Assembly: GCA_014630515.1 (NCBI GenBank)
Contig: GCA_014630515.1_4091.1
Direction: 5' to 3' (one strand)
DNA length: 21,344 bases
From: a phage
Below are positions 10,267-21,344 of the stretch, in pieces (position 1 is the first letter of the stretch; each line of letters opens with the position of its first letter). The notes under the pieces were generated by a model that worked only from the letters and a program-made list of their open reading frames with translations, was not told the origin of the DNA and searched no databases. The position numbers were made by a program, and so were the translations under genes.

Positions 10267-10295
10267 ATTATGCCAGTACTATCAAACGTTGTCAA
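10267..10295 (-). promoter_or_regulatory. sigma70-type promoter (CATAAT subtype)
   Basis: minus strand TTGACA, 17 bp, CATAAT; same cassette as 14065-14093 and 14361-14389. Confidence 0.55.
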
Positions 10296-10314
10296 TAGTA
10301 CTGTGATAATATTT

Positions 10315-10527
10315 TTAGTTAATGATAGTCAGTGTAAAATTGTAATCCCCTGCCTGGTATAGTACTTTATCGCCGAACGTGCCAACACGTTTCATATTGC
10401 AATAGATACCCATAACACTTTTTACATCTTTGATATTCCGAACACCTGTGATATCCTTGTTGAAATTTTCATGATCAGAAAATAAAACTTGTTTTGCATT
10501 TTTCAGTACAGTGCGGATATTAGCCAT
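10315..10527 (-). CDS. hypothetical protein (70 aa)
   Basis: ATG 10525-10527; GAGGA SD; track start lies in leader. Confidence 0.65.
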   Translation of the reverse strand: MANIRTVLKNAKQVLFSDHENFNKDITGVRNIKDVKSVMGIYCNMKRVGTFGDKVLYQAGDYNFTLTIIN

Positions 10528-10577
10528 TTTGTTTTTCCTCTTAGTGGGGAGAATCATCTCTCCCCTTGATGTAAACT

Positions 10578-10605
10578 ATTATACAGTACTATAATCTATT
10601 GTCAA
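10578..10605 (-). promoter_or_regulatory. early sigma70-type promoter with 5' stem-loop
   Basis: minus strand TTGACA, 16 bp, TATAAT; leader hairpin GGGGAGAG-atgatt-CTCCCC. Confidence 0.6.
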
Positions 10606-10618
10606 ACTATTTTTTATA

Positions 10619-10957
10619 TTATTCGAAATCTTCTGGACCGGACTGATAATCATCTTCACCGTATGCACTTTCTAACTTCTCACCAGTGCAATCATCAGTT
10701 AGTGAGTCATCCTCATAGTTCACGTCTACGCCAGTGATGTAAAACTGGCTATCGTCTGGATCATTGAAATTAATTTTTTGGATGTTTACAATAACTGTAT
10801 TGATACCCAGGACACCGCCATCAGCCGTTACAAAGTACTGATAGTTTTCGCAACCGCCTGAATTGAAACCGTAATTAATTTCGGCCCGACCATCATTTAA
10901 ACGCAGTGCCTGGGCGATGAATTCGTTTTCAAAGTTAGATTGAGCGATTGAGATCAT
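10619..10957 (-). CDS. acidic protein (112 aa)
   Basis: ATG 10955-10957; AAGGAA SD; C-terminal third is Asp/Glu-rich. Confidence 0.7.
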   Translation of the reverse strand: MISIAQSNFENEFIAQALRLNDGRAEINYGFNSGGCENYQYFVTADGGVLGINTVIVNIQKINFNDPDDSQFYITGVDVNYEDDSLTDDCTGEKLESAYGEDDYQSGPEDFE

Positions 10958-11021
10958 TTTGTAGTTCCTTGTTTGCTTAAGATGGGACTATTATATAATA
11001 GCCCCGTTGTGTTGTCTAGTA

Positions 11022-11489
11022 CTATTTTACGTTAATTTCTAAGTACTGCTCTTTGATGTTTTCCTGTTGGTAAATCTCGTTTAATGCTTTAAGATCTAAC
11101 ACCTGTTTACCTGCGGCCCGAATATACTTGTTAAGAGTCGCTAACAGCTTCTCAGGCGTGTTTGTAGTCTTACGGGTAGGGATTTTGTCATGTCCCATCG
11201 CGTAGTACTGTTTACGTGGAATAGTACTGATAACGCTGCGGTACGGTTCCATGATCAGCTTGTCTGTGTATTCGTCGCTATCCCCGAACTTCATACCGTG
11301 GATCGCAAAGGTCATCATCATGCGGTCGTTATCGCGGATATTGTGGGGGCAGTCGGCAAGCTCGCGAGTCAGTGACATAGTGATCCCCACGTCGCCACCC
11401 AGCGGTAAAGGTCGGGCGATAAAGAAACCGTTAGGGAATACTTTCAGGAAGTTTTCTTGTACTGCTGCGACGAATTCGATGCTATTCAT
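11022..11489 (-). CDS. hypothetical protein (155 aa)
   Basis: ATG 11487-11489; AGGAA SD 7 nt upstream; leader hairpin GGGGAAA-cgg-TTTCCCC. Confidence 0.7.
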   Translation of the reverse strand: MNSIEFVAAVQENFLKVFPNGFFIARPLPLGGDVGITMSLTRELADCPHNIRDNDRMMMTFAIHGMKFGDSDEYTDKLIMEPYRSVISTIPRKQYYAMGHDKIPTRKTTNTPEKLLATLNKYIRAAGKQVLDLKALNEIYQQENIKEQYLEINVK

Positions 11490-11541
11490 AATTCATTTCC
11501 TTAGTTACCAGGGGAAACCGTTTCCCCTTGCTATGTAAAAC

Positions 11542-11569
11542 ATTATACTTGATTCTAAGTACAATGCAA
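11542..11569 (-). promoter_or_regulatory. early sigma70-type promoter with 5' stem-loop
   Basis: minus strand TTGCAT, 16 bp, TATAAT. Confidence 0.6.
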
Positions 11570-11589
11570 GTACTTTTTGCAAAATACTT

Positions 11590-11772
11590 TTAATCTCTTT
11601 GATACTCACATAACGCCATATCATACGCAATTGACGCTGATTTGAAATCATCGTGACGCTCAATCTCTTTCATGTCTACATAGATGATCCATAGGTTTAC
11701 GTCTTCCTGGCGTATGATAACGGCAGGTTTACCGATGATATGTGATGCCGCTAGTTCGATTGGTTTAAACAT
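11590..11772 (-). CDS. hypothetical protein (60 aa)
   Basis: ATG 11770-11772; AAGGAG SD 8 nt upstream; transcribed from the promoter inside repeat element D. Confidence 0.65.
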   Translation of the reverse strand: MFKPIELAASHIIGKPAVIIRQEDVNLWIIYVDMKEIERHDDFKSASIAYDMALCEYQRD

Positions 11773-11805
11773 TGTAGTACTCCTTATTAGATTGATATAT
11801 TTTAT

Positions 11806-11892
11806 TTACACTTCCGCACCCGGTGGGCTAGTGAGCTATCTCTCAATGAATATATAATAGCAAAATGGCTGACCGAAGTCAACCACTTTTTT
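11806..11892 (-). repeat. repeat element D: conserved leader motif, embedded promoter, variant hairpin
   Basis: core GCACCCGGTGGGCTAGTGAG; hairpin TGGCTGACCGAAGTCAACCA with compensatory changes relative to A-C; T6 on plus strand; minus-strand TTGACT, 17 bp, TATTAT (11854-11882). Confidence 0.6.
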
Positions 11893-12029
11893 CATTTATT
11901 TTTAGCTTTCAGAATCGCCGCCTTTCGCGTCATGCCTTGCTTGATGTACTCCTTTACTTTCGCTTTACGTGCTTTCGCTTTATCTGCTTTCGTTTTAGGA
12001 GTACTGTAAATTAAACCGTTAGGATTCAT
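11892..12029 (-). CDS. lysine-rich small protein (45 aa), not in ORF track
   Basis: ATG 12027-12029 directly follows TAA of 12030..12119 (TAAATG); about one third Lys/Arg; stop TGA 11892-11894. Confidence 0.45.
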   Translation of the reverse strand: MNPNGLIYSTPKTKADKAKARKAKVKEYIKQGMTRKAAILKAKNK

Positions 12030-12119
12030 TTAAATCACCATAAAGAATAGATAGGTTACTAACAATGCCGCGATCAATGCACCGACCAGGGCCGAACTGT
12101 AATAAGCTAATGATTTCAT
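12030..12119 (-). CDS. small hydrophobic membrane peptide (29 aa), not in ORF track
   Basis: ATG 12117-12119 overlaps TGA of 12116..12268 (ATGA); translation MKSLAYYSSALVGALIAALLVTYLFFMVI has one predicted transmembrane helix. Confidence 0.45.
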   Translation of the reverse strand: MKSLAYYSSALVGALIAALLVTYLFFMVI

Positions 12120-12268
12120 TTTTTAGCCTGAAAGTAATGTTTAATTTGTGCGGCTGTCAGTGCACAATTACGCAGGAAGTTTTCTGTATAACTCCTACGA
12201 GTACTGAAAGAAAATTGACCTTTGCCGTTGCCGATAGTAACATCAAACCGAGCGTTGTATTGTTTCAT
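12116..12268 (-). CDS. hypothetical protein (50 aa)
   Basis: ATG 12266-12268; AGGAG SD 7 nt upstream; track start 12298 lies in leader. Confidence 0.6.
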   Translation of the reverse strand: MKQYNARFDVTIGNGKGQFSFSTRRSYTENFLRNCALTAAQIKHYFQAKK

Positions 12269-12318
12269 TTTGATTCTCCTAGTATCGGGGAGAATCATTC
12301 CCCCCCTCTATGTAAACA

Positions 12319-12346
12319 ATTATACAGTACTGAAAACTAATTGCAA
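12319..12346 (-). promoter_or_regulatory. early sigma70-type promoter with 5' stem-loop
   Basis: minus strand TTGCAA, 16 bp, TATAAT. Confidence 0.6.
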
Positions 12347-12349
12347 GTA

Positions 12350-12496
12350 CTATTTTTTAGATTTACGCAAACTTTCTACCATCTCAGGAGTAAGGTCCGG
12401 CGGGTAGGAAACCACTTCATCAACGAAACGTAAAGGGAATACCCCAGCGAAAGGTGAACATGCTTTCTTAGTATTACTCTTTTTTGATGCTTTCAT
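12350..12496 (-). CDS. hypothetical small protein (48 aa), not in ORF track
   Basis: ATG 12494-12496; AAGGA SD 7 nt upstream; stop TAG 12350-12352. Confidence 0.55.
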   Translation of the reverse strand: MKASKKSNTKKACSPFAGVFPLRFVDEVVSYPPDLTPEMVESLRKSKK

Positions 12497-12547
12497 TTCA
12501 TATTCCTTAATTAGTGGGGAGTACTATTTCTCCCCTTCATGTAAAAC

Positions 12548-12575
12548 ATTATACAGTACTGAAAACTAATTGCAA
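12548..12575 (-). promoter_or_regulatory. early sigma70-type promoter with 5' stem-loop
   Basis: minus strand TTGCAA, 16 bp, TATAAT. Confidence 0.6.
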
Positions 12576-12578
12576 GTA

Positions 12579-12821
12579 TTATTTTAAACTTTGTGCGACT
12601 AATTTCGCACGGTCAATCATATACTGCCATTTTTGGATCTCTTCTGGTAGAAAACGATATTCACCAATAACAATAGTGATACACTTTTCAGCCTGGTCAA
12701 TGTATGTAGTATCAATCTCGACTTGAACGGGTACACGTTCGCCGTAATCAGTGCCAGGGATAATGCAATCATTATCATAAGTAACAGTAGTTGCAGTGTC
12801 TTTGATTAAAATTGTTTCCAT
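12579..12821 (-). CDS. hypothetical protein (80 aa)
   Basis: ATG 12819-12821; weak GAGAG-type SD. Confidence 0.6.
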   Translation of the reverse strand: METILIKDTATTVTYDNDCIIPGTDYGERVPVQVEIDTTYIDQAEKCITIVIGEYRFLPEEIQKWQYMIDRAKLVAQSLK

Positions 12822-12875
12822 TATACTTTCTCTCTTTGAGTGAGGCGGGAACTATTCCCGCTCTCGATGTAAACA

Positions 12876-12903
12876 ATTATACAGTACTGAAAACTAATTG
12901 CAA
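12876..12903 (-). promoter_or_regulatory. early sigma70-type promoter with 5' stem-loop
   Basis: minus strand TTGCAA, 16 bp, TATAAT; leader hairpin GCGGGAA-ctatt-CCCGC. Confidence 0.6.
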
Positions 12904-13103
12904 GTATTATTTTCTAAAAAATGATTGTATGCTGCATCAACCACTCTTTCGATAACATACGCCAACGGCACGTATCCAACTACATGACTACAATAGAAAG
13001 GACTACGATTAGAATCATCGTATGCAAATACTTTACCAGGTACGGCATCAATCACATACATATTAACCTTTAAGATGTCAATCTTATCCTGTACAGTAAG
13101 CAT
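12894..13103 (-). CDS. hypothetical protein (69 aa)
   Basis: ATG 13101-13103 lies 1 nt after TAA of 13105..13275; track start is a TTG inside the upstream gene. Confidence 0.55.
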   Translation of the reverse strand: MLTVQDKIDILKVNMYVIDAVPGKVFAYDDSNRSPFYCSHVVGYVPLAYVIERVVDAAYNHFLENNTCN

Positions 13104-13104
13104 A

Positions 13105-13275
13105 TTACGCCGCCTTATCAGTACTGGCAACCGGACGGATACGGGCCATCGCCTGGGCTTGTTCTACGCTGTATTGTTCGTATAGTCTGCATTCTTCCGG
13201 TGTAGGAATAGCATCAATACGTTTCATTGGTTTAATGATGCTTTCAACTTCATTCAGTACTTGATTAACGTTCAT
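13105..13275 (-). CDS. hypothetical small protein (56 aa), not in ORF track
   Basis: ATG 13273-13275; GAGGA SD 7 nt upstream; stop TAA 13105-13107; the overlapping track ORF 13272..13502 is in another frame. Confidence 0.55.
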   Translation of the reverse strand: MNVNQVLNEVESIIKPMKRIDAIPTPEECRLYEQYSVEQAQAMARIRPVASTDKAA

Positions 13276-13326
13276 GGTATAATCCTCAATATAAGCGGCC
13301 TAAATCGACCGCTAACGATGTTTTGA

Positions 13327-13596
13327 TTAATAGGTGTATGGTTGACGCTCAAACAATGATTGCACGTTGTACGCCCCGCTAATGGGCTTTGCTGGTAAAT
13401 CAATTTTATATTGTTCACGCTTAAAAATAATAAAACGGCAATTGTTTTTAACATCAAAATTGATTGAACGTTCCAATAGCTTTCCTTCGTGTACAAATAC
13501 AAGATAACCGCTTGCTACTTGTTTTGTAGTACTGGTTGCAACCATAGACCGACGAACATGAGTACCTGCATCGATTAAAGTACTGATATTTTTCAT
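13327..13596 (-). CDS. hypothetical protein (89 aa)
   Basis: ATG 13594-13596; AGAGGA SD 7 nt upstream. Confidence 0.7.
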   Translation of the reverse strand: MKNISTLIDAGTHVRRSMVATSTTKQVASGYLVFVHEGKLLERSINFDVKNNCRFIIFKREQYKIDLPAKPISGAYNVQSLFERQPYTY

Positions 13597-13634
13597 TATA
13601 CTATCCTCTTAAGTTAATTTAATTTCTTTCCCCT

Positions 13635-13671
13635 ATGCAGACACTATATCAAAGTATCTGCATAAAGTAAA
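13635..13671 (-). promoter_or_regulatory. atypical promoter overlapped by operator-like inverted repeat
   Basis: minus strand TTTACT, 17 bp, TATAGT; inverted repeat ATGCAGACAC / GTATCTGCAT (one mismatch) 13635-13662 spans the spacer and -10. Confidence 0.45.
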
Positions 13672-13676
13672 GCTAA

Positions 13677-14021
13677 TTAAAGATCTTTTTTGCGTTTAAC
13701 ATCAGTTACCGAACTGTAAACAGTGATATTATTGTCACGGCAAAAACGGGAAAGATAAGAACCGCGTAAAAACTCTTTACCTTCCATATTAATAACCTTG
13801 CTAAATTCTTCCATTGCTACAGTGTCAAAGTGATCCCCGTATCCATATTGGAACGGCACGTTTACTACTTCAATAAAATTACCATCAATTTCTACGTCTA
13901 CACTTAAAGAGAAATAAGTGTTACCATATGAAGCCTGGAACCAACGCCGAGCGGCAATATGTACAACTTCAACAGAAGACAGGTTGATATTTTGTGATGC
14001 GATAGTGTTGATGTTAGCCAT
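13677..14021 (-). CDS. hypothetical protein (114 aa), paralog of 6166..6489
   Basis: ATG 14019-14021; AAGGA SD; C-terminal DVKRKKDL. Confidence 0.7.
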   Translation of the reverse strand: MANINTIASQNINLSSVEVVHIAARRWFQASYGNTYFSLSVDVEIDGNFIEVVNVPFQYGYGDHFDTVAMEEFSKVINMEGKEFLRGSYLSRFCRDNNITVYSSVTDVKRKKDL

Positions 14022-14064
14022 TTTAGTATTCCTTAACTTAATATGTGTTGTCTTGATAAAATCT

Positions 14065-14093
14065 ATTATGCCAGTACTATCAAACTATGTCAA
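14065..14093 (-). promoter_or_regulatory. sigma70-type promoter (CATAAT subtype)
   Basis: minus strand TTGACA, 17 bp, CATAAT. Confidence 0.55.
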
Positions 14094-14112
14094 TAGTACT
14101 GTGATAATAATT

Positions 14113-14325
14113 TTACTTACTTTCTTTCGCTGCTTTATGTGTTGCCACTGCCATAACCACATCAGCACGAACAAAGTTAGCAACCGTATCAGTGTAATAT
14201 TTGATTGCATCGTCAACTTCTGCGAACGTCCGATACATACCACACCAAGATACTTTATAACCTGCTTTCACTTGTTCCAGCTTAACCAGTGTTTTGTTTA
14301 CTTTGATTTTAGTAATGATAGCCAT
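14113..14325 (-). CDS. hypothetical protein (70 aa), paralog of 10044..10223
   Basis: ATG 14323-14325; GAGGA SD 9 nt upstream. Confidence 0.65.
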   Translation of the reverse strand: MAIITKIKVNKTLVKLEQVKAGYKVSWCGMYRTFAEVDDAIKYYTDTVANFVRADVVMAVATHKAAKESK

Positions 14326-14360
14326 TTTTTTGTTTCCTCTTAGTTGTCTTGATAAAATCT

Positions 14361-14389
14361 ATTATGCCAGTACTATCAATCTATGTCAA
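14361..14389 (-). promoter_or_regulatory. sigma70-type promoter (CATAAT subtype)
   Basis: minus strand TTGACA, 17 bp, CATAAT; ~70-bp block repeated from 14040-14110. Confidence 0.55.
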
Positions 14390-14408
14390 TAGTACTGTGA
14401 TAATAATT

Positions 14409-14552
14409 TTACTTACTTTTTGCTTTCTTTGATGCTTCAACCTGGTCGGCCCACTCTTTACCCCATACTTGAGCATTATAATGATACTGGCAAAGAGCAA
14501 CGCCCCGCTTTAAACCAGTAATAGATTTTTTACCACATTGACAAGTTTTCAT
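14409..14552 (-). CDS. small Cys-containing protein (47 aa), not in ORF track
   Basis: ATG 14550-14552; GAGGA SD; CQCG ... CQYH spacing suggests a small metal-binding knuckle; stop TAA 14409-14411. Confidence 0.5.
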   Translation of the reverse strand: MKTCQCGKKSITGLKRGVALCQYHYNAQVWGKEWADQVEASKKAKSK

Positions 14553-14601
14553 TTTAGTTTCCTCTTAGTGGGGAGAACCATTTCTCCCCTTGATGTAATG
14601 T

Positions 14602-14629
14602 ATTATACTTTATCTGATTTACTTTGCAA
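14602..14629 (-). promoter_or_regulatory. early sigma70-type promoter with 5' stem-loop
   Basis: minus strand TTGCAA, 16 bp, TATAAT. Confidence 0.6.
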
Positions 14630-14637
14630 GTACTTTT

Positions 14638-14865
14638 TTAATTTAATTCATCCAGGCAAAGGATACGTTCTACACCTAAATCAGTTAAGCTAATAGACGG
14701 CACTTGATAGGTTTCAATGTATTCTACACTAGCGTACTGACCAAACTCATCAACTGACCAGTTATACATTGCAAAATGTAGTTCCGCACCTTTCTTGTTA
14801 GTGATAACCGCTACTACTGCCGCATTGCCAACTGTACCAGATACGCGAGTGATTACGATAGCCAT
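14638..14865 (-). CDS. hypothetical protein (75 aa)
   Basis: ATG 14863-14865; AGGAA SD; track start 14922 lies in leader. Confidence 0.6.
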   Translation of the reverse strand: MAIVITRVSGTVGNAAVVAVITNKKGAELHFAMYNWSVDEFGQYASVEYIETYQVPSISLTDLGVERILCLDELN

Positions 14866-14920
14866 TGTTTTGATTCCTTTGATTTGGAAGGAGAACCGTT
14901 TCCCCCTCTCGATGTAAAAC

Positions 14921-14948
14921 ATTATACGCTAATCTCTTAATCGTGCAA
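14921..14948 (-). promoter_or_regulatory. early sigma70-type promoter with 5' stem-loop
   Basis: minus strand TTGCAC, 16 bp, TATAAT. Confidence 0.55.
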
Positions 14949-15102
14949 GTACTTTTTATTACTTTTTGCAAAATACTTTAAACGCCCTCAATCGCATTCT
15001 AACGACCTTAACGCCACCAGCTAGGGCGACGCATCAGATAATCAGTTTAATGCGTTAGAATCGATTCTAGGCGGTGCTAGTGGACTGGAATACTATAGAC
15101 AC

Positions 15103-15129
15103 AAAAAAGCCCACTGTTTAAGGTGGGCT
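15103..15129 (-). terminator. rho-independent terminator (minus strand)
   Basis: minus strand AGCCCAC-cttaaaca-GTGGGCT followed by TTTTTTGTGTC; downstream of 15151..15633. Confidence 0.7.
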
Positions 15130-15150
15130 AGTGATTCAGTACTTTAATTG

Positions 15151-15633
15151 TTATGCTTCAACTTTGCGATGAGCTTCGATCCATTCCTCGCGAGTCATAC
15201 CGCTTTCTTTGATAGCGTCCAGTACTACCGCAATGCAGTTACCGCGTACAGGAATCATATGTTCTTCCCCGTTATCAAGTACTACAGTAACACGTTCTTG
15301 AATCCATTTTTTAGGTTTAGATTCTGGCTTATCTTCACCATACTTAACCGCCAGGGCTTTATGTGCCATTTCTACAACTACTTCCAGATCCAATCCAGAC
15401 ACCGCCGCCTGGATACTTTCAATTGTTGCTTGCAGTTCGGCTTCACGGGCTTTTTTCTGTTCTTCCAGTTCTGCTACCTTTTTGGCTTGCAGTTCTTTAG
15501 CTTCACTGTACGCAATGTTAAAATTGTTGCGTACTGCTTTCATGGTATCGTTATCCAGGTCAGCCAGCAATTCAGCAGCAATAACAGTATCGTTTGAAAT
15601 CAGTGCTTTCAGGAATGATTTTACATTAGCCAT
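15151..15633 (-). CDS. hypothetical protein (160 aa), Ala/Glu/Lys-rich central region
   Basis: ATG 15631-15633; GAGGA SD 8 nt upstream; long ~120-nt leader. Confidence 0.7.
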   Translation of the reverse strand: MANVKSFLKALISNDTVIAAELLADLDNDTMKAVRNNFNIAYSEAKELQAKKVAELEEQKKAREAELQATIESIQAAVSGLDLEVVVEMAHKALAVKYGEDKPESKPKKWIQERVTVVLDNGEEHMIPVRGNCIAVVLDAIKESGMTREEWIEAHRKVEA

Positions 15634-15756
15634 TTTATAAATCCTCAATTAAAGTTTAGTTTACGTTTATTAGTGTATCAAAGTTTTATCGACGTGTCCA
15701 GTTTTTCGTTCGACTTACTGGCGGTCTACTTAGTGCTCCCCGTCTTGATGTAATAC

Positions 15757-15784
15757 ATTCTACGCCTTTTTGTGGTAATGTCAA
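15757..15784 (-). promoter_or_regulatory. sigma70-type promoter
   Basis: minus strand TTGACA, 16 bp, TAGAAT; followed by a diverged copy of the duplicated leader block (15665-15750). Confidence 0.5.
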
Positions 15785-15832
15785 CTACTTTTTTAAAACT
15801 ATTTTTAAAGTATGCAGTACTACGATAATACA

Positions 15833-15863
15833 AAAACAAAAAAGCCCACTGTATAAGTGGGCT
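15833..15863 (-). terminator. rho-independent terminator (minus strand)
   Basis: minus strand AGCCCAC-ttataca-GTGGGCT followed by TTTTTTGTTTTTG; same module as 15103-15129. Confidence 0.7.
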
Positions 15864-15880
15864 AGTGATTCAGTACTATA

Positions 15881-16180
15881 TTATAAACAATTAATTACGC
15901 CAGTGAATGTAACTTTCTCTGTATCCATTACAGTGACAGAACCGCGTTTACTTTTTGCATCGTAATAGATGGTCGTGCTACCCTGATCATCTTCTTCATG
16001 GTACGGGCCATTAGCAAACATTGCAGGGGCCAGTTCCAGGGATTTGGTAACGATCTCAGCCGTTTCCTCGTTAGTCATTGCAACAGTGCACTGAATGAAT
16101 TTTTCTTTCGGTACATCAACGGAAGCGTTAACAGCGAAAGAGGAAACAGATAAAGCCAGGGCGATGATTGCAGTTTTCAT
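15881..16180 (-). CDS. small secreted or periplasmic protein with N-terminal signal peptide (99 aa)
   Basis: ATG 16178-16180; N-terminus MKTAIIALALSVSSFAVNA has Lys then hydrophobic core then AxA-like site. Confidence 0.7.
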   Translation of the reverse strand: MKTAIIALALSVSSFAVNASVDVPKEKFIQCTVAMTNEETAEIVTKSLELAPAMFANGPYHEEDDQGSTTIYYDAKSKRGSVTVMDTEKVTFTGVINCL

Positions 16181-16230
16181 TTGTATATCCTTTGTTAGTA
16201 CTAGGGAGTATTCCCGATTAGATGTAAAAC

Positions 16231-16258
16231 ATTATACGCATTTAAAAACTATTATCAA
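16231..16258 (-). promoter_or_regulatory. early sigma70-type promoter
   Basis: minus strand TTGATA, 16 bp, TATAAT. Confidence 0.5.
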
Positions 16259-16293
16259 GTACTTTAATATAAAAGTATTTGAAAAAAAAAGTC

Positions 16294-16322
16294 TTGACAA
16301 CTGCATCCAGTACTGGCATAAT
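16294..16322 (+). promoter_or_regulatory. plus-strand sigma70-type promoter
   Basis: plus strand TTGACA, 17 bp, CATAAT; only clear plus-strand promoter inside the gene array. Confidence 0.5.
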
Positions 16323-16328
16323 ACTTAC

Positions 16329-16425
16329 ATAAAGACGAGATAGTCACTAACCCACAGGGTGCATAGATCCGTCTATTAAATGATTCAGTACTGCAAAATA
16401 AAGGGGATCGTTTGATCCCCTCTGT
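16329..16425 (+). ncRNA. candidate small RNA (plus strand) carrying the conserved leader motif
   Basis: starts ~7 nt after the 16294-16322 promoter, contains GAGATAGTCACTAACCCACAGGGTGC, ends at hairpin 16402-16421; no SD-preceded ORF. Confidence 0.3.
16393..16421 (-). terminator. rho-independent terminator (minus strand)
   Basis: minus strand AGGGGATC-aaac-GATCCCCT followed by TTTATTTTG; 5 nt after stop of 16427..16648. Confidence 0.65.
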
Positions 16426-16426
16426 A

Positions 16427-16648
16427 TTACTTAGTAAGATATAAACAAAAATCACCTTTCTTTGCTACGCCGCCAGTGTAACGCGATGAATAGTTAGAAA
16501 CGTCTTGCACTTCTGCAATGACGAGCGTATCATCATTTATTTCGTCGCAAAAACATACTGCGGGATCTTCTACGCCAATATTGTCAGCATGTGCCCGCAT
16601 AGATTTAACCAGTGCTTCAAGCTGGGAAAGAGTAGTGATATTAGCCAT
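16427..16648 (-). CDS. hypothetical protein (73 aa)
   Basis: ATG 16646-16648; AAGGAG SD 8 nt upstream. Confidence 0.7.
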   Translation of the reverse strand: MANITTLSQLEALVKSMRAHADNIGVEDPAVCFCDEINDDTLVIAEVQDVSNYSSRYTGGVAKKGDFCLYLTK

Positions 16649-16699
16649 TGTAAAACTCCTTATTAGTGGGGAGAACCATTTCTCCCCTTGATGTAAACT

Positions 16700-16727
16700 A
16701 TTATACAGTACTGGAAACTAATTGCAA
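16700..16727 (-). promoter_or_regulatory. early sigma70-type promoter with 5' stem-loop
   Basis: minus strand TTGCAA, 16 bp, TATAAT. Confidence 0.6.
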
Positions 16728-16735
16728 GTACTTTT

Positions 16736-16939
16736 TTAATTTAATTGCTTTAAAACATAATCAAAGACACCACGCACATCATTGATCATCGCCTGGCGGT
16801 TAGCAGGTAACGCATCAGGATCGCCACTATCCCAGGCATTAATGAAGCCACCTAAATCATGGAATACTTTATTCCGTAACCCGATCAACTGCAATTCTTT
16901 TTCTTCAAGCTCTTTGATACGTTTAATTAAATCACTCAT
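16736..16939 (-). CDS. hypothetical protein (67 aa)
   Basis: ATG 16937-16939; GAGGA SD overlaps stop of 16957..17241; start region GAGGATTATCTAATGAGT is duplicated at 17241. Confidence 0.6.
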   Translation of the reverse strand: MSDLIKRIKELEEKELQLIGLRNKVFHDLGGFINAWDSGDPDALPANRQAMINDVRGVFDYVLKQLN

Positions 16940-16956
16940 TAGATAATCCTCAGTAC

Positions 16957-17241
16957 TCAATTGTAAGATCCGCAACGGTCGCAGTAGTGCCCGTCCTCGT
17001 CATCTTCTACCACTTGCCCGATGAAATGATCTACTTTCGCTTTCAGGTTATTATAATCGTTTTCTACTTCCTTTAAACGCTTCTGGTAGTATTCCAGTGC
17101 TTTAAGATATGCCGCATCAGTAGTTTTCTCCTGCATAGCTAAATTCATGCCACGCGTTTCATCGTACAGCCAAAAACCATCGGTGCACTCACTTATAGAC
17201 AATGACTTGCTTAACACATTGTACTTTATTACTTTACTCAT
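16957..17241 (-). CDS. hypothetical protein (94 aa)
   Basis: ATG 17239-17241; GAGGA SD; C-terminal CDRCG. Confidence 0.7.
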   Translation of the reverse strand: MSKVIKYNVLSKSLSISECTDGFWLYDETRGMNLAMQEKTTDAAYLKALEYYQKRLKEVENDYNNLKAKVDHFIGQVVEDDEDGHYCDRCGSYN

Positions 17242-17291
17242 TAGATAATCCTCATTAAAGGCGGGAACTATTCCCGCTCTCGATATAAAGT

Positions 17292-17319
17292 ATTATACGT
17301 TAATCTAATTACTTTGCAA
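17292..17319 (-). promoter_or_regulatory. early sigma70-type promoter with 5' stem-loop
   Basis: minus strand TTGCAA, 16 bp, TATAAT. Confidence 0.6.
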
Positions 17320-17326
17320 GTACTTT

Positions 17327-17563
17327 TTAGTGCTTTTTATAAAACATCTCAGCGGTGATATTTTTACCCGTTGGTTGTACTTTATCCAGGATCTTTTGGT
17401 GTGCACTACGCCCGAAAGAATAAGAACCGTAAACCGTTAGCCAGTAGTCGCCATTTTGGTTTACATGTACCGCACAATAAGGAACGCCCCGCGAATCGTC
17501 ACCAATGAAGTGTGATACTGTACCCGTTACGTTTGGCGTTGTAGTTTTGATTTGTTCGATCAT
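17327..17563 (-). CDS. hypothetical protein (78 aa)
   Basis: ATG 17561-17563; AGGAG SD 8 nt upstream; track start lies in leader. Confidence 0.6.
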   Translation of the reverse strand: MIEQIKTTTPNVTGTVSHFIGDDSRGVPYCAVHVNQNGDYWLTVYGSYSFGRSAHQKILDKVQPTGKNITAEMFYKKH

Positions 17564-17621
17564 TTCTCTTACTCCTGGGATATAGGCGGGAACCATTCCC
17601 CGCCATTGATTCAGTACTGAA

Positions 17622-18233
17622 TTAATATTCGATAGATTCTACTACATCGTCGATAACGTTAAATTGATATTCGTTACCCTCAATCAGTCCTACAATGTTT
17701 TCAGTAGTAAACTGGTCTTCATAAGCATTTTCTAAATCACGGTACAGCTTACAAGATAATTCTCGGATAGTATCAGTCAGTAAGTTTTCCAGATCCTCAG
17801 CCAATGCAGCCTGTTTTACAGTTAAATCAGTGTAGCGAGTATCAACGCAACCGCCTACCGTGTTTTCGTGAGCGTAGCGTGATTGGGAACGTTCTACACT
17901 CATTTCCAAATCATCTTCGTTCAATAGGTGACGGATGGAACGATATTTCGTTAACGCCTTAACCTTGCGTAAAAACTTCTCAGCGTCAACGTGGTCAGTA
18001 CTGATTGATGCACCGTCACCTTGCGACCAAAAACCACTGTATTGCAATTCAGCTTCATCTATGCCGTATTCTGGCAGTACTGTTTCTTTATAGTATTCCA
18101 GTACTGATTCAGCAAAGAAATTATCCTCACTTGCACGTTCCCGATCCCGAACCAGTTCGATAGCCGCCGCTTGTTGTTCTGCGTTCAGTTCAGAAAAATC
18201 CATAACGAAAGTAGTAGTAGTGATAGTTTTCAT
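17622..18233 (-). CDS. acidic protein (203 aa)
   Basis: ATG 18231-18233; GAGGG SD; strongly Asp/Glu-rich; largest gene in the window. Confidence 0.7.
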   Translation of the reverse strand: MKTITTTTFVMDFSELNAEQQAAAIELVRDRERASEDNFFAESVLEYYKETVLPEYGIDEAELQYSGFWSQGDGASISTDHVDAEKFLRKVKALTKYRSIRHLLNEDDLEMSVERSQSRYAHENTVGGCVDTRYTDLTVKQAALAEDLENLLTDTIRELSCKLYRDLENAYEDQFTTENIVGLIEGNEYQFNVIDDVVESIEY

Positions 18234-18265
18234 TTTGTAACCCTCATTCAGTAGTTGATGTAAGT

Positions 18266-18293
18266 ATTATACGCTTTTAAAAACAATTGTCAA
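18266..18293 (-). promoter_or_regulatory. early sigma70-type promoter
   Basis: minus strand TTGACA, 16 bp, TATAAT. Confidence 0.6.
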
Positions 18294-18390
18294 ACTATTT
18301 TATCAGGGGAGTTTTTCGTGTGCCTTACTCCTGGGCTACTTAACGGGAAGTTACTTATTTCGTTCCCCGTCCTGATGTAAAACATTATAC
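18288..18390 (-). repeat. 103-bp duplicated block, copy 2
   Basis: identical to 6908-7010; lies between two tandem promoters upstream of 17622..18233. Confidence 0.6.
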
Positions 18391-18411
18391 GCCTTTAAAC
18401 ATAGTTTGCAA
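18384..18411 (-). promoter_or_regulatory. early sigma70-type promoter
   Basis: minus strand TTGCAA, 16 bp, TATAAT. Confidence 0.55.
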
Positions 18412-18444
18412 GTACTTTTTGAAAATAGTTTTTATCTCTTTCAT

Positions 18445-18526
18445 ATAGATACATTCCCGCACCCTATGGGCTATCGCCTTGTGTCCGGCTTGTAAGTATT
18501 ATCTCACTAAGCCGGATAACGGTCAA
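18445..18526 (-). repeat. repeat element G: promoter with conserved leader motif and flanking inverted repeat
   Basis: minus strand TTGACC, 17 bp, GATAAT (18498-18526); inverted repeat CCGGCTT/AAGCCGG brackets the -10; leader has CCCATAGGGTGCGGGAATG. Confidence 0.5.
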
Positions 18527-18532
18527 GTACTT

Positions 18533-18799
18533 TTATTCAAGTACTGCAATCTTTTTAGTACTGTACACAGTAACGCGGTTGCCCTTGCGGTCGTGCTTTA
18601 TTTCTACCACGCGACGCGATACACTATCAGGACGCTTTAAAGCAGATAGCCAGTACTGAATTGATCGGGCTGTACTTTGCTTTACTACGGCCCAACGTTT
18701 ACCACGTTCAGATTGTACGCCCATATCTTTAAACGTTGCCCCGTCCTGGCGTGCTGCAATCCGAGCTAGTTCACGCGTCGCAAAATATGTAATAGTCAT
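18533..18799 (-). CDS. hypothetical protein (88 aa), paralog of 5675..6070
   Basis: ATG 18797-18799; track start is a TTG in the promoter. Confidence 0.6.
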   Translation of the reverse strand: MTITYFATRELARIAARQDGATFKDMGVQSERGKRWAVVKQSTARSIQYWLSALKRPDSVSRRVVEIKHDRKGNRVTVYSTKKIAVLE

Positions 18800-18836
18800 G
18801 CTGTTACCCCTATCGTTGATGTACAAAAAGAACTTT

Positions 18837-18865
18837 ATTATAAAGTACTATCATTTTTTGCGATA
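18837..18865 (-). promoter_or_regulatory. sigma70-type promoter (weak -35)
   Basis: minus strand TATAAT with poor -35; context resembles the 6115-6143 promoter of the paralog. Confidence 0.4.
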
Positions 18866-18884
18866 GTACTTTAAATAAATTCTA

Positions 18885-19124
18885 TTACATTCCAACCATC
18901 GCCGCACGGATCGCAGTAGTGCTATACTTAAAGCCGTCTGGAGTTTTATCTTGTCCAGTCTGTTCTAAAAATAGCATCATATGACGGGCCGCATCATTGC
19001 GATTAGTATTGGCGGCAATAAAGTCCTGGGCCAACCGGTACAATGACTCATCGTTATTAATCCAAAGGCTTACATTCCAATGAGTTTTGTTTTTGTGACC
19101 TAAGAACATTTTTGATTTAGCCAT
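18885..19124 (-). CDS. hypothetical protein (79 aa)
   Basis: ATG 19122-19124; GAGGA SD. Confidence 0.7.
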   Translation of the reverse strand: MAKSKMFLGHKNKTHWNVSLWINNDESLYRLAQDFIAANTNRNDAARHMMLFLEQTGQDKTPDGFKYSTTAIRAAMVGM

Positions 19125-19174
19125 TTTTTAATCCTCTTATATAGTGGGGAACTATTCCCCACCTGATGTAAAAC

Positions 19175-19202
19175 ATTATACGCTTTTAAACTTAGTTTGC
19201 AA
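19175..19202 (-). promoter_or_regulatory. early sigma70-type promoter with 5' stem-loop
   Basis: minus strand TTGCAA, 16 bp, TATAAT; leader hairpin GGGGAA-ctatt-CCCC. Confidence 0.6.
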
Positions 19203-19216
19203 GTACTTTATTAAAC

Positions 19217-19579
19217 TTATTCGTAAATTTTGCCACTGTCAGCCCATACCAGGAAACGAGGCATATTATCCCATGCATCTTGTTTTAAATTTAAACCGTG
19301 TAATACTTCTGTACTTTCCATTCCTGGTACTGGTTTACTATACACCGCGAAATTTTCGCCCATATACTGATAAACCATCGTTAAATCACTGGCGATCATC
19401 TTATGGATCATCGCATCAAGCATCACGGTAGCGGCGTATTGTTCACGCTTAAGCGGCAACATTGTAATAAGTTCCCGATAAGCTGAAATGTGAATTTTTA
19501 CCGTTTCAGCCGGAAGACCTTTCATCTCTTCACGGAAGTTGACCAGGTTAGCAATAATTTTATTGATTTGGGTCGCCAT
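19217..19579 (-). CDS. hypothetical protein (120 aa)
   Basis: ATG 19577-19579; track start 19636 lies in promoter and leader; first gene downstream of the ORF-poor region. Confidence 0.6.
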   Translation of the reverse strand: MATQINKIIANLVNFREEMKGLPAETVKIHISAYRELITMLPLKREQYAATVMLDAMIHKMIASDLTMVYQYMGENFAVYSKPVPGMESTEVLHGLNLKQDAWDNMPRFLVWADSGKIYE

Positions 19580-19635
19580 CGTATTAATCTCTTTTAAAGT
19601 GTAGCGGGAAGTGTTCCCGCTCTCGATGTAAAACA

Positions 19636-19663
19636 TTATACGCCTTTAAACATAGTTTGCAAG
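19636..19663 (-). promoter_or_regulatory. early sigma70-type promoter with 5' stem-loop
   Basis: minus strand TTGCAA, 16 bp, TATAAT. Confidence 0.6.
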
Positions 19664-19898
19664 TACTTTCTACATGTACTTTTAAAATAGTTTTCTTTCT
19701 ATATAGGGGAACTATTATTCAGTACTATCATTCAGTACTGAATCAACCAAATCACTACTACACCCCATAAAACGGCCTCAGACGCATTCTAACGCATTAA
19801 TACACCTAAGCTATACATTTGCACCATTCCAATCATTCCAGGGCTTTACGGGCCGTTTAAACGCGTTAAATTATTTTCAATTATTTTGTTTTTAGGTA

Positions 19899-19926
19899 TT
19901 GACTTGATCCTGAAAAAGCGTATAAT
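19899..19926 (+). promoter_or_regulatory. plus-strand sigma70-type promoter
   Basis: plus strand TTGACT, 16 bp, TATAAT; followed by conserved leader motif GACGCGAGAAAGCGGATACCCCAGGGGGTGGGAAG. Confidence 0.55.
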
Positions 19927-20113
19927 TACTACATAGACGCGAGAAAGCGGATACCCCAGGGGGTGGGAAGATCCGTCCAAAATTCAAGATATAAAAAAAG
20001 GATAGACTCCCGCACCCTAGCAGGTTAACGCACTTTCTCAGTACTGAATTATAGTACCATAGTCCGGCCCAGGATGGCAAGCAAATTAATTAAAACTTTT
20101 TTCATCCAGGGTA

Positions 20114-20141
20114 TTGCTTTATTTTTCCAGTACTGTATAAT
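20114..20141 (+). promoter_or_regulatory. plus-strand sigma70-type promoter
   Basis: plus strand TTGCTT, 16 bp, TATAAT; followed by leader motif GTCGAGAAAGACTCAAGCCCACCGGGTGCATAG. Confidence 0.5.
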
Positions 20142-20239
20142 AGTTCCATCAAGTCGAGAAAGACTCAAGCCCACCGGGTGCATAGTTACGCCCAAAATTC
20201 AGTACTGAAAAAAATTTTTAAAAATATCCGTCCAGGCCG

Positions 20240-20268
20240 TTGACATTGCCCCCAGTTTATAAGATAAT
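20240..20268 (+). promoter_or_regulatory. plus-strand sigma70-type promoter
   Basis: plus strand TTGACA, 17 bp, GATAAT; points into the iteron-like region. Confidence 0.5.
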
Positions 20269-20359
20269 GATTCCAGATTCAGAAAAATCTAACTCCAGAT
20301 ACTGCGGGGAAACTATCCCCACGCGGTAGGGGAACTATTGGAAAAAACAAAATAAAATT

Positions 20360-20480
20360 TTGATTTAGCCGTCTATACTTCCAGACGTGTAACCATCTAG
20401 CCGTTTAGCCGTCCAAACGTCTAGCCATCCAGCCATCCAGAAATCTAGACGTTTAGCCGTCTAGATGGATAGCCATCTTT
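20360..20480. repeat. iteron-like direct-repeat array
   Basis: 7 copies of YAGCCRTY within ~115 bp (TTTAGCCGTC at 20364, 20404, 20452); also CTAGACGT/CTAGATGG and ACTTCCAGAC repeats; preceded by A-rich tract 20341-20360. Confidence 0.5.
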
Positions 20481-20879
20481 ACTTCCAGACTTCTGGAGGG
20501 CTAGACATATCTACGTCCAAAATCCATCCAGGGTAACTACGCCCAAAATCCGTCAGTACTATACCATAGATCTATCTTTTGAAAGGGAGTATTCAGTACT
20601 GCCATCATAGCCCTCACTATGTTACCCTAGGAGGATGAAGACTATCATGTAGTACTGAATACTGTTAGAGGGAATCCACCAGCACAAGCTGGTGGCATAA
20701 TGCTTTAGATTAAAATCAGTACTGACACCATTCTGTTAATATCAGTACTGTTATTACGATTTTCATATGAGGTTCAAAAAGATGTACCACCACAGGAGGA
20801 ACTATCTTTTCTGTACTGTCTCACGACAGGAGGTAGAGTAAATGAATTGTTCGCAGCAACTCATCTCTCTATGTAGAAC

Positions 20880-20907
20880 ATTATACAGTACTGAATCATA
20901 ATGTCAA
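20880..20907 (-). promoter_or_regulatory. minus-strand sigma70-type promoter in ORF-poor region
   Basis: minus strand TTGACA, 16 bp, TATAAT; no ORF over 60 aa downstream. Confidence 0.5.
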
Positions 20908-21242
20908 TAACTTTCTTTCATTATTCAGTACTGATATTCTTGAGAACTACCCGTCTACAAACATCATTATATCCCACAAATCATAAACGTCCCAACGTAA
21001 ATTTCAACTTTCGAAGATCCAACTTTTATTTCATAGGTACTCCAAAATTTTTAGGATCGAGATTTAGGATGGAGTACTAACCAACTTTTTGCTGGAGCCT
21101 CAAGGGGTAATGGAATTTTACCCCGACGGGTAAAAGGGTAATTGTAATTAAGGTGAAAGTAATAATTCAGTACTAATCATTGCGTGATTACTTTTGATTA
21201 CATTTGATGTAATTTGAAAAATGGAAAAGGAGCTTGGAAACT

Positions 21243-21268
21243 AAAAAGTACGGCAGACTTCCTCTGCC
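21243..21268 (-). terminator. possible rho-independent terminator (minus strand)
   Basis: minus strand GGCAG-aggaagt-CTGCC followed by GTACTTTTTAG. Confidence 0.4.
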
Positions 21269-21271
21269 TAC

Positions 21272-21344
21272 TTAGTGACATATCAGTACTGCTACGTTCT
21301 TGATTAAACGTGAACATTCCTGTACTCTAGTACTCACTACTGAT
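21272..21344 (-). CDS. possible 3' end of a minus-strand gene entering from the right edge (partial)
   Basis: open frame from window edge to TAA 21272-21274, followed 4 nt later by the 21243-21268 hairpin; too short to assess. Confidence 0.3.
   Translation of the reverse strand, partial: SVVSTRVQECSRLIKNVAVLICH

Follow-up and report, generated by a model that had tools for sequence, protein, structure and literature searches.

Here, we identify the gene-free right-hand part (positions 19640 to 21344) of a 21,344-nucleotide stretch of phage DNA (GenBank assembly GCA_014630515.1, contig GCA_014630515.1_4091.1; the whole stretch is referred to as the window) as a conserved non-coding module at the genome end of an Asteriusvirus jumbo phage. 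For this module, we propose a working model in which structured RNA leaders would serve early transcription and a coat of the host methionine repressor MetJ on a tandem array of operator-like boxes would act as a gate. Taken jointly, module and working model are in our judgment the likely explanation of the region. Its identity and anatomy are well supported, and from these we infer the functions, i.e., leaders read by an early factor, a MetJ coat as a gate, and an outer part serving as a terminase site.

The original prediction, made from the letters alone, had described a divergent regulatory region that separates transcription blocks and possibly encodes small RNAs. The region is indeed non-coding, with many sigma-70-type promoters on either strand, but it is not simply a spacer: it is the terminus-proximal part of a direct terminal repeat (DTR) and contains the genome end. 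From the early genes to the end, the predicted elements are the promoter of the first gene; promoters P1 and P2, each with a two-hairpin leader; promoter P3 with a hairpin leader; the array of 16 boxes; YCCAAAAT repeats and hairpins; an inward-pointing promoter; terminal repeats; and a hairpin at the cut site. This order recurs in every Rak2-like genus examined.

Identity of the window and position of the DNA end

Several lines of evidence identify the window and locate its physical end. First, sequence comparison assigns it to Asteriusvirus, i.e., to the PBECO4/121Q/G17-like jumbo coliphages. In a nucleotide search, the gene-free region matched 42 phage records at 91 to 98% identity, almost all of them Escherichia or Salmonella jumbo phages of this genus (PBECO4, 121Q, G17, phAPEC6, fEgEco12, and others), and it is unannotated in most. 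At least 80% of the region is covered by 35 of the 42 records, while the same coverage of the whole window is reached by 1 of 215; no record matches the window over its full length, the best being ELP-22 (87% coverage, 92% identity).

Second, phages of the Asteriusvirus type have published DTRs of ∼20 to 21.5 kb (PMC13070987; for G17, PMC6563267), and the 20,993-bp repeat of fEgEco12 has termini confirmed by PhageTerm and restriction digests (PMC13070987). fEgEco12, which is ∼95% identical to the window phage, supplies an experimentally confirmed genome end: its position 1 maps to window position 21272, and its start, AGTAGGCAGAGGAAGTCTGCC, is the minus strand of the window from 21272. The last 30 bases of fEgEco12 and position 1 of G17 map to window position 434 with 0 mismatches, and the two DTR copies of fEgEco12 (1–20993 and 353741–374733) are identical (0 mismatches). 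Third, the block matching window positions 20300–20570, which contains the array, lies 703 to 713 from record position 1 in ELP-22, E9.1, BF17, and vB_Ec-M-J, so that position 1 of these records is the same terminus site.

Altogether, the window looks like a collapsed assembly, in which 433 nt of unique DNA precede and 72 nt follow a single DTR copy (434–21272; 20,839 bp), and mapping to fEgEco12 places the virion DNA end between 21272 and 21273. Thus, the gene-free region is no internal boundary; it comprises the outermost ∼1.64 kb of the repeat and a further 72 nt outside. The first gene of fEgEco12, which starts at 1689, is the open reading frame (ORF) at 19217–19636 on the minus strand of the window. 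The two DTR junctions, CACTA/AGTAGG and, as the reverse complement, CGCTA/AGGTTA (slashes mark the junction), share the motif C-R-CTA/AG in inverted orientation, which, though short, is suggestive. The features at the end are as follows.

21252–21272, minus strand: terminal hairpin GGCAGA-GGAAG-TCTGCC with a T-run; terminator-like site, starting 4 nt inside the DTR
Between 21272 and 21273: physical end and DTR boundary, minus strand CACTA/AGTAGGCAGAGG, from exact mapping to fEgEco12 position 1
21273–21344, no strand assigned: non-coding unique flank with CAGTACTG at 21284, ahead of the right-hand DTR copy where the DNA is concatemeric or the assembly collapsed

In a concatemer, the cut-site hairpin with its T-run would terminate transcription coming from the unique side.

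The module is conserved beyond the genus. Mean identity of the region across nine Asteriusviruses is 88%, and distant BLAST searches together with direct reading revealed the same order in Muenster (Alcyoneusvirus), Munch, pEa_SNUABM_12 (Eneladusvirus), and CBB, GAP32, and XbC2 (Mimasvirus). In all these relatives except GAP32, the region lies within the first 1.3 to 1.8 kb of the record, and in four genera the distance from array to terminus is 650 to 760 nt. The terminal region of XbC2, a phage recorded on Xanthomonas, closely resembles those of CBB and GAP32, which have Enterobacterales hosts; whether its host is recorded correctly, or when it changed hosts, merits a second look.

As originally predicted, no credible ORF of more than 60 aa lies to the right of the first minus-strand gene. 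Two ORFs of at least 50 aa overlap 19640–21344, i.e., a 62-aa frame with a TTG start (19892–20080, minus strand) and a 59-aa frame (20901–21080, plus strand). In the alignment of nine Asteriusviruses, the former has internal stops or a frameshift in six; the latter is frameshifted or stopped in five, and its start codon is gone in fEgEco12, A4, and UE-S1. A 44-aa ORF and a 19-aa mini-ORF, the latter behind a strong Shine-Dalgarno (SD) sequence, are likewise broken in relatives. Because all four frames are disrupted, we reject protein coding in the region; the comparison with the same locus in related phages, which had been proposed as a check, revealed no conserved coding frame spanning it. 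In JP4, SD-2_S15, E9.1, WPEC3, and other GenBank records, five to seven “hypothetical proteins” are annotated inside the region; since none of the frames is conserved, these are likely over-calls.

A tandem array of met boxes

The most regular element of the region is the following array.

20367–20510, no strand assigned: tandem run of 16 met boxes of 8 bp each (MetJ operator type), all in the same register of 18 slots, consensus A-G-A/C-C-G/A-T-C-T

Repeat finders reported an 8/16/32-bp periodicity at 20366–20520, with in-register 8-mers such as AGCCGTCT, AGACGTGT, AAACGTCT, and AGACGTTT. Met boxes were scored with the published weight matrix and thresholds (PMC3228920, Table 3), an operator being at least two adjacent boxes that each carry at least a quarter of the consensus bits and together at least those of the consensus (Augustus & Spicer 2011; threshold 12.58). 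The 16 boxes total 123 bits, with a mean of ∼7.7 bits per scoring box, and on these published measures the array qualifies by sequence as a MetJ operator. Among all possible 8-mers, only 1% pass the per-box threshold; elsewhere in the 21-kb window, no run exceeds two boxes, and 200 random windows reach at most two to four. As a positive control, the Escherichia coli metJ/metB operator scored as four boxes with 31 bits (6.8 to 9.0 per box). The columns over the 18 slots follow the matrix in that T never occurs at position 3, A never at position 6, C never at position 1, and G never at position 8. The array does not lie over the promoter of a methionine-pathway gene; it starts ∼100 nt downstream of the −10 element of P3, and no methionine gene is nearby.

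The arrays of relatives have 13 to 21 boxes. Arrays were also found in T5-like phages, i.e., Aeromonas phage AhSzq-1 (28 boxes, upstream of A2-A1-dmp), Vibrio phage Pontus (16 boxes), and Providencia phage PR1 (9 boxes, within its 10.5-kb repeat at ∼770 bp from the inner boundary). Met-box-type arrays are likewise present in the T7-like phages PGT2, phiKT, and KPV811; those of PGT2 and KPV811 lie no farther than ∼100 nt from the record end, and the nine boxes of PGT2 are 38 to 109 nt from the record start. In AhSzq-1, a single non-coding region upstream of A2-A1-dmp contains consensus DnaA boxes (e.g., TTATCCACA at 3874), Fur-like boxes, and the 28-box array (3860–3890, 5370–5890).

MetJ is confined to five gammaproteobacterial orders (PMC3228920). 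The array of the Aeromonas phage, used as a query, matched 103 phage records, and the hosts of 102 of these belong to MetJ-bearing orders (genera Escherichia, Vibrio, Erwinia, Aeromonas, Salmonella, Providencia, Yersinia, Pectobacterium, Cronobacter, Serratia, and Klebsiella). The close relatives of the window phage all infect Escherichia or Salmonella, i.e., MetJ-bearing hosts. In a literature search confined to sources outside the subscription journals, no report linked MetJ to terminal repeats or AGACGTCT to bacteriophages.

In Munch and Muenster, the array slot holds AAATGAGAATCATTATCATT repeats, which resemble Fur boxes: five sites in Munch and two in Muenster lie within three to four mismatches of the 19-bp Fur box, versus 0.01 expected, and the repeats match T5 repeat region 3 with 91% identity over 35 nt. 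In the window, neither Fur-like boxes nor DnaA boxes (TTWTNCACA) were found, and T5 itself has no met-box run longer than two. The link to T5 therefore runs via T5-like phages of other hosts and via the Fur-like repeats.

Two-hairpin leaders behind P1 and P2

All three plus-strand promoters that had been predicted are borne out by the scan or by their build, with sites scored as matches out of the 12 hexamer positions of the −35 and −10 elements. P1 and P3 score 11/12; P2 has a perfect −10 element, and the scan did not list it because its −35 element (TTGCTT) is weak. P1 and P2 with their downstream units, and the unit that faces unit 1, are as follows.

19899–19926, plus strand: P1, TTGACT-16-TATAAT, 11/12; points to the genome end
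19938–19985, plus strand: unit 1, type-2 (two-hairpin) leader; hairpin 1 (HP1) CGC-GAGAAA-GCG at 19938–19949, hairpin 2 (HP2) ACCCC-AG-GGGGT at 19953–19964, tail CCGTCCAAAATTC at 19973–19985
20013–20053, minus strand: convergent type-2 unit; −10 element TATAAT at 20053–20048 with no good −35 element, HP1 ACT-GAGAA-AGT at 20042–20032, HP2-like core ACCTGCTAGGGTG at 20025–20013
20114–20141, plus strand: P2, TTGCTT-16-TATAAT, with CAGTACTG abutting the perfect −10 element; −35 element only 3/6
20152–20200, plus strand: unit 2, type-2 leader; HP1 AGTC-GAGAAA-GACT at 20152–20165, HP2 GCCC-ACC-GGGT at 20169–20179, tail ACGCCCAAAATTC at 20188–20200, followed by an A/T-rich tract

The two plus-strand units are built alike, as had been noticed before: CGAGAAAG, which corresponds to the closing pair and loop of HP1, occurs in the window only at 19940 and 20155, and both copies are followed by a CCC-N-GGG core and then by ...YCCAAAATTC. 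Each unit begins at approximately +5 relative to the start from P1 or P2. A plus-strand promoter with the same unit downstream is also present in Muenster, Munch, pEa_SNUABM_12, CBB, and XbC2. The build of P2 matches the phage's own early promoters (TTGCAA-N8-CAGTACTG-TATAAT), and Muenster has an equivalent second copy.

Copies from the window and from five other genera were compared in an anchored manner; HP1 is shifted by one column among the rows of a MAFFT alignment, and an anchored script was used in place of formal pair counting. HP1 has a 3- to 5-bp stem and a purine loop, mostly GAGAAA and usually 6 nt long (range 4 to 8). Of 19 distinct units, 16 have a stem of 3 bp or more that encloses a purine-rich loop, versus 2.4 on average in 2000 shuffles, with 8 as the highest value, and the stems comprise 16 different sequences with compensatory variation. 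Stems that vary freely around a constant loop point to a structure in single-stranded RNA and not to a duplex site bound by protein. HP2, RCCC-N3-GGGT(GC), lies a few nucleotides downstream of HP1 and is near-invariant, with one compensatory variant in Muenster (ACGCC..GGCGT). The HP2 motif occurs nine times in the DTR of the window and nine times in that of G17 but is absent from 70 kb of unique G17 DNA. Six of the nine units in the window are on the minus strand, i.e., in gene sense, and three on the plus strand (16294 and units 1 and 2). The unit at 11882 (minus strand) runs into an SD sequence and an ATG ∼40 nt downstream and is an mRNA 5′ leader, so that a cis-acting leader element fits at least as well as a small RNA gene.

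Unit 1 and the minus-strand unit facing it form an imperfect palindrome of ∼100 bp (19938–20042). The 108-nt RNA from P1 (19933–20040) folds at −34 kcal/mol (z = −3.6), with none of 200 shuffles as stable, and the RNA of unit 2 at −11.4 kcal/mol (z = −2.4). The suggestion that the units are small RNAs thus fared unevenly: a structured, recurrent element with compensatory changes is present, but no plus-strand intrinsic terminator was predicted in 19000–21344, and the Rfam search that had been proposed as a check lent no support (Rfam 15, 0 matches at E up to 1), which leaves free-standing small RNAs unproven. A scan of the region for tRNA and tmRNA was also negative. Because there is neither a plus-strand terminator nor an Rfam match, we read the units as a new family of cis-acting early leaders; judged by structure and distribution, they are probably restricted to the DTR and not stand-alone small RNAs acting in trans.

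P3, inward promoters, and the CAGTACTG palindrome

Promoter-like sites are frequent around the region, with 13 in 19000–21344 versus 7.5 ± 2.5 in shuffles. Over the whole window, sites scoring at least 10/12 number 42 on the minus strand versus 6 on the plus strand. The minus-strand promoter that had been predicted at 20880–20907 is a perfect 12/12 match, and minus-strand sites beyond the original prediction lie at 19662–19635, at 20053–20048 (a −10 element), and at 21007–20980 and 20995–20966.

19604–19620, minus strand: type-1 leader hairpin GCGGGAAC/GTTCCCGC, downstream of the first-gene promoter
19635–19662, minus strand: promoter of the first DTR gene (ORF 19217–19636), TTGCAA-16-TATAAT, AGTAC abutting the −35 element; found by the scan, in a repeat shared with 19142–19209
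20240–20268, plus strand: P3, TTGACA-17-GATAAT, 11/12; ∼100 nt upstream of the met-box array, pointing to the array and the terminus, with equivalents in other genera
20302–20345, plus strand: P3 leader; hairpin CUGCGGGG-AAACUAU-CCCCACGCGG and block CGCGGTAGGGGAACTATTGGAAAAA conserved across genera, −22 kcal/mol, z = −3.3
20792–20799 and 20826–20833, minus strand: motifs ACAGGAGG as read on the plus strand, CCUCCUGU in minus-strand RNA; conserved in all nine Asteriusviruses
20907–20880, minus strand: perfect-consensus promoter TTGACA-16-TATAAT, 12/12, CAGTACTG abutting the −10 element; 365 nt from the DNA end, pointing inward
21007–20980 and 20995–20966, minus strand: two overlapping weaker promoter-like sites from the scan, 10/12 each

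The P3 leader has no conserved start codon, with ATT here and ATG in other genera, where the frames have 3 to 14 codons. The predicted RNA of the inward promoter at 20907 begins with a hairpin of ∼15 bp (20873–20833) and carries the two CCUCCUGU motifs; downstream of the ACAGGAGG motifs, no plus-strand ORF is conserved in the nine Asteriusviruses.

The CAGTACTG palindrome occurs 42 times in the window versus 0.27 expected; at many early promoters, it abuts the −10 element and AGTAC abuts the −35 element. We considered it as a DTR-specific mark and rejected this, as it is over-represented across all G17 DNA sampled, with 31 copies in 50 kb of unique DNA versus 0.6 expected, and 0.6 per kb in 70 kb versus ∼0.01 per kb expected. 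Its density in the gene-free region, 6 per kb, represents an ∼10-fold enrichment. No relevant paper on CAGTACTG was found. The terminal regions of Eneladusvirus, Mimasvirus, Munch, and Muenster are likewise rich in AGTACT, which also lies beside −35 boxes in the T5-like Aeromonas phage.

Throughout the remainder of the DTR (434–19636, minus strand), there are ∼42 sigma-70-like promoters, nearly one per small gene. Most lead into a type-1 leader consisting of ...TACATC, a perfect GC hairpin (e.g., GGGGAGA-N5-TCTCCCC), ACTAA..GGAG, and ATG. At 2231, 4152, 7150, and 11882 (minus strand), GGGATTGACTCCGGTCAGTCCCTTTGCTATTAT promoters have a terminator-like hairpin with the −35 element within the stem, fused to the next promoter. 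A type-2 leader follows each of the four, and hairpins of this type may be what is annotated in the G17 DTR as several terminators of −13.0 kcal/mol.

Outer elements and neighboring genes

Between the array and the end lie further repeats and hairpins.

20512–20554, plus strand: two ACGYCCAAAATCC repeats flanking the array, including the YCCAAAATY sites at 20516 and 20542
20677–20696, no strand assigned: hairpin CCACCAGC-ACAA-GCTGGTGG, also in Munch; the G17 counterpart is annotated as a minus-strand terminator (−16.5)
21041–21090, plus strand: GGTACTCCAAAATTT followed by TTTAGGATCGAGATTTAGGATGGAGTACT repeats, 94 to 97% identical across nine Asteriusviruses
21185–21217, no strand assigned: tandem TGATTACATT, 3.3 copies (repeat finder)

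YCCAAAATY is found at five sites (19976, 20191, 20516, 20542, and 21041), all on the plus strand, versus 0.95 expected in the whole window on both strands. The hairpin at 20677–20696 has no clear T-run behind it on either strand. Equivalents of the TTTAGGATCGAGATTTAGGATGGAGTACT repeats adjoin the terminus in Munch, XbC2, CBB, and pEa_SNUABM_12, and the outer 300 bp contain repeats conserved across genera, including the terminal GATTTAGGA / GGTACTCCAAAAT.

Closer to the first gene, the 32-nt block AATGCGTTAGAATGCGTCTGAGGCCGTTTTA (19768–19798, minus strand) is 87.5% identical to T5 9267–9297, a part of the T5 terminal repeat that borders palindrome D on its left (E = 0.002, small database), and sits within a stretch that is 96% conserved among Asteriusviruses. 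A Pfam search with ten DTR proteins returned only DksA/TraR, DUF7249, and a weak kinase match. The gene at 8909–9166 (minus strand) encodes a DksA/TraR-type zinc finger (E = 1e-11) and that at 4171–4812 (minus strand) gives the weak protein-kinase-like match; it is plausible that these two proteins are tools for host takeover.

Discussion

We suggest that, once the DNA is inside the cell, host RNA polymerase would fire from the promoters of the region. The type-2 units would act in cis as structured 5′ leaders within a system of early transcription that extends over the DTR, and they may be read by some early factor or may stabilize or process the RNA. Host MetJ loaded with S-adenosylmethionine (SAM) would coat the array and create a nucleoprotein block ∼0.76 to 0.9 kb from the end, situated between the terminus-proximal promoter and the early genes as well as between P3 and the terminus. 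Such a block would be the counterpart of the repeat region with Fur and DnaA boxes at the inner end of the T5 terminal repeat, i.e., the region of the injection stop signal (iss). The last ∼300 bp together with the cut-site hairpin are a likely region of terminase recognition and cleavage.

Several observations weigh against this model. P1 to P3 point at the free DNA end or, in concatemers, run antisense to neighboring genes, an orientation that the model leaves unexplained. The array is not a classical operator, because it has 16 boxes, while natural operators have two to five over methionine-gene promoters, and because it lies ∼100 nt downstream of P3; moreover, an 8-bp tandem repeat could grow by slippage regardless of function. 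The one host outside the MetJ-bearing orders is that of XbC2, which has a 14-box array and is recorded on Xanthomonas, an organism without MetJ. As for the parallel with T5, the window has no DnaA boxes and no ORF of the size of A1, the largest being 213 aa. Finally, the literature search returned no paper with transcript, footprint, or binding data for Rak2-like phages, nor a transcriptome of phAPEC6 or CBB.

One alternative is that the region is mainly a pac site, in which the 8-bp array, the YCCAAAAT repeats, and the terminal repeats bind the small terminase and thereby place the cut between 21272 and 21273. The region contains the cut site, the motif C-R-CTA/AG is common to both DTR junctions in inverted orientation, the YCCAAAATY repeats are oriented and confined to one kilobase, and both the spacing of 650 to 760 nt between array and terminus (in four genera) and the terminal GATTTAGGA / GGTACTCCAAAAT repeats are kept across genera. 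However, the same type of array is found in T5-like and T7-like phages, whose packaging enzymes are, by taxonomy, unrelated; sister genera that share the rest of the module have Fur-box-like repeats instead; and substitutions in the array track the matrix of host MetJ. We consider it rather unlikely that packaging accounts for the region as a whole; it probably accounts for the outer ∼300 bp, which is compatible with the leader and MetJ model.

Alternatively, the P1 and P2 modules could be independent small RNA genes whose transcripts of ∼50 to 110 nt act in trans early in infection. Near-consensus promoters found in five genera, the lack of an ORF downstream of the P1 and P2 units, and the compensatory stems and conserved loop of HP1, typical of a functional RNA hairpin, agree with this, as do the units at 4152, 2231, and 7150 (minus strand) and at 16294 (plus strand), which run into another promoter or an antisense gene end and not into an SD sequence and ATG. 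The P1 RNA does fold far better than shuffles; however, this fold stems from the inverted repeat with the convergent unit and therefore holds for either strand and for DNA too. Together with the lack of a plus-strand terminator and of an Rfam match and with the unit at 11882 being an mRNA leader, this makes independent small RNA genes an unlikely reading, and we favor cis-acting leaders.

A third possibility is a stop signal of the T5 type, with the 20.8-kb DTR entering first from the 434 end and pausing at the repeat-rich region, and the early DTR genes being expressed before the rest. The geometry is that of T5, with genes transcribed toward the terminus, untranslated repeats at the inner end of the left repeat, and arrays ∼0.5 to 0.9 kb inside the boundary, and met-box arrays are also present in T5-like phages. 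In T5, repeat region 3 has been proposed to hold the iss, and the calculated shear point of first-step transfer (∼9618) falls within these Fur-box-like repeats (bioRxiv 10.1101/866236). On the other hand, two-step transfer has not been reported for Rak2-like phages, the A1-sized ORF and DnaA-box pairs are lacking, and even for T5 there is no clear account of how proteins of the cytoplasm might stop entry. We regard a full T5-type stop signal as quite improbable here.

Origins of T7 and T4 consist of a promoter and an A/T-rich element, and the region offers promoters, a GC-rich hairpin, A/T-rich tracts of 25 to 35 nt behind each plus-strand leader (19977–19998, 20192–20226, and 20340–20366) for unwinding, and an 8-bp array that could serve as iterons, but a transcription-primed replication origin is very improbable in view of the lack of DnaA boxes, “iterons” of only 8 bp that match a host repressor matrix and are swapped for Fur-like boxes in sister genera, A/T-rich tracts that double as the upstream elements of the promoters that follow, and a GC skew without inflection in the region.

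Returning to the MetJ gate, a broader proposal can be made tentatively. In Rak2-like and T5-like phages with a known boundary, the arrays lie ∼0.5 to 0.9 kb from the repeat boundary. Three unrelated groups of phages with long or short direct terminal repeats, i.e., Rak2-like jumbo myoviruses, T5-like phages, and T7-like phages, may place arrays of sites for host metabolite sensors at a fixed spot, the predicted sensors being MetJ with SAM in the window phage, Fur with iron in T5 as well as in Munch and Muenster, and, again in T5, DnaA with ATP. Such arrays could provide a swappable protein-coat gate at the genome end that controls DNA entry, early transcription across the end, or repressor titration, and the DTR-restricted two-hairpin leader could be a new cis-acting RNA element. 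We see this generalization as possible though not probable. A repeat-rich non-coding end is a known trait of DTR phages; the met-box array that can be swapped with Fur-type boxes, the leader motif, and the extension to jumbo phages are new.

The role of the non-coding, repeat-rich ends of T5 and T7 has been unclear for decades, and the stop signal of T5 was never molecularly defined. The candidates are now concrete, in that one slot holds MetJ-type or Fur-type boxes with the same geometry in T5-like phages and in 350-kb jumbo phages, and the arrays are almost entirely limited to phages whose hosts have the matching repressor. The structured leader motif, which shows compensatory changes and is absent from Rfam, marks early DTR transcription units. 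In addition, exact coordinates of the genome end help annotators of jumbo coliphages, which are candidates for therapy, because several pipelines fill the region with spurious “hypothetical proteins.”

Comparison with known systems

The array shares with E. coli MetJ operators (consensus AGACGTCT) the 8-bp period, the single register, and CTAG at the box junctions; the score per box is similar (∼7.7 bits versus 6.8 to 9.0 in metJ/metB), and tolerated and forbidden substitutions match the matrix (PMC3228920). It differs in that E. coli operators have two to five boxes over the promoter of a methionine gene, as compared to 16 predicted boxes at a phage genome end.

The type-2 units recall lambda nut (boxA and a boxB hairpin) and HK022 put, which are also small structured elements early in a transcript, with a short variable stem and a purine-rich loop. 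However, the HP1 loop has 6 nt and not 5, a second GC hairpin is present, and no N-like protein was identified. We also looked for lambda boxA (CGCTCTTA) and found none by the units; the sole CGCTCTT in the window is at 2007 (plus strand), away from any unit. The resemblance to nut and put is only a lead.

The left end of T7, as reportedly laid out by Dunn and Studier in 1983, is said to consist of the terminal repeat, the SRL short-repeat array, several strong host promoters, and the first gene. As in the window, a non-coding DTR end carries short direct repeats near the end, followed by strong sigma-70 promoters before the first early gene. In contrast, the T7 repeat unit is CCTAAAG-like and not a met box, its terminal repeat has 160 bp versus 20.8 kb, and all T7 promoters but one minor one point inward.

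The iss region of T5 lacks a counterpart in the window for several of its elements. There are no DnaA boxes, Fur-like boxes, or A1-sized ORF, and homologues of the IRD′/IRC′ repeats were not noted, though not searched for. Likewise, the pre-early genes A1 and A2 have no counterpart in the window as judged by ORF size (maximum 213 aa) and by Pfam on the ten DTR proteins, a comparison that did not include a remote homology search. The likeness lies in the arrangement. In both cases, an untranslated segment of 1.2 to 1.7 kb that is rich in repeats and palindromes occupies the inner end of a long direct terminal repeat and overruns its boundary; it lies upstream of early genes transcribed toward the terminus, the orientation of G17 being that of the left repeat of T5; and it contains clusters of putative binding sites for host proteins. 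In addition, the T5 TAAATGAGAATCATTATCATTTG repeats recur in the same slot of Muenster and Munch. If the fixed-spot gate is true, it could reveal the long-sought nature of the T5 injection stop signal.

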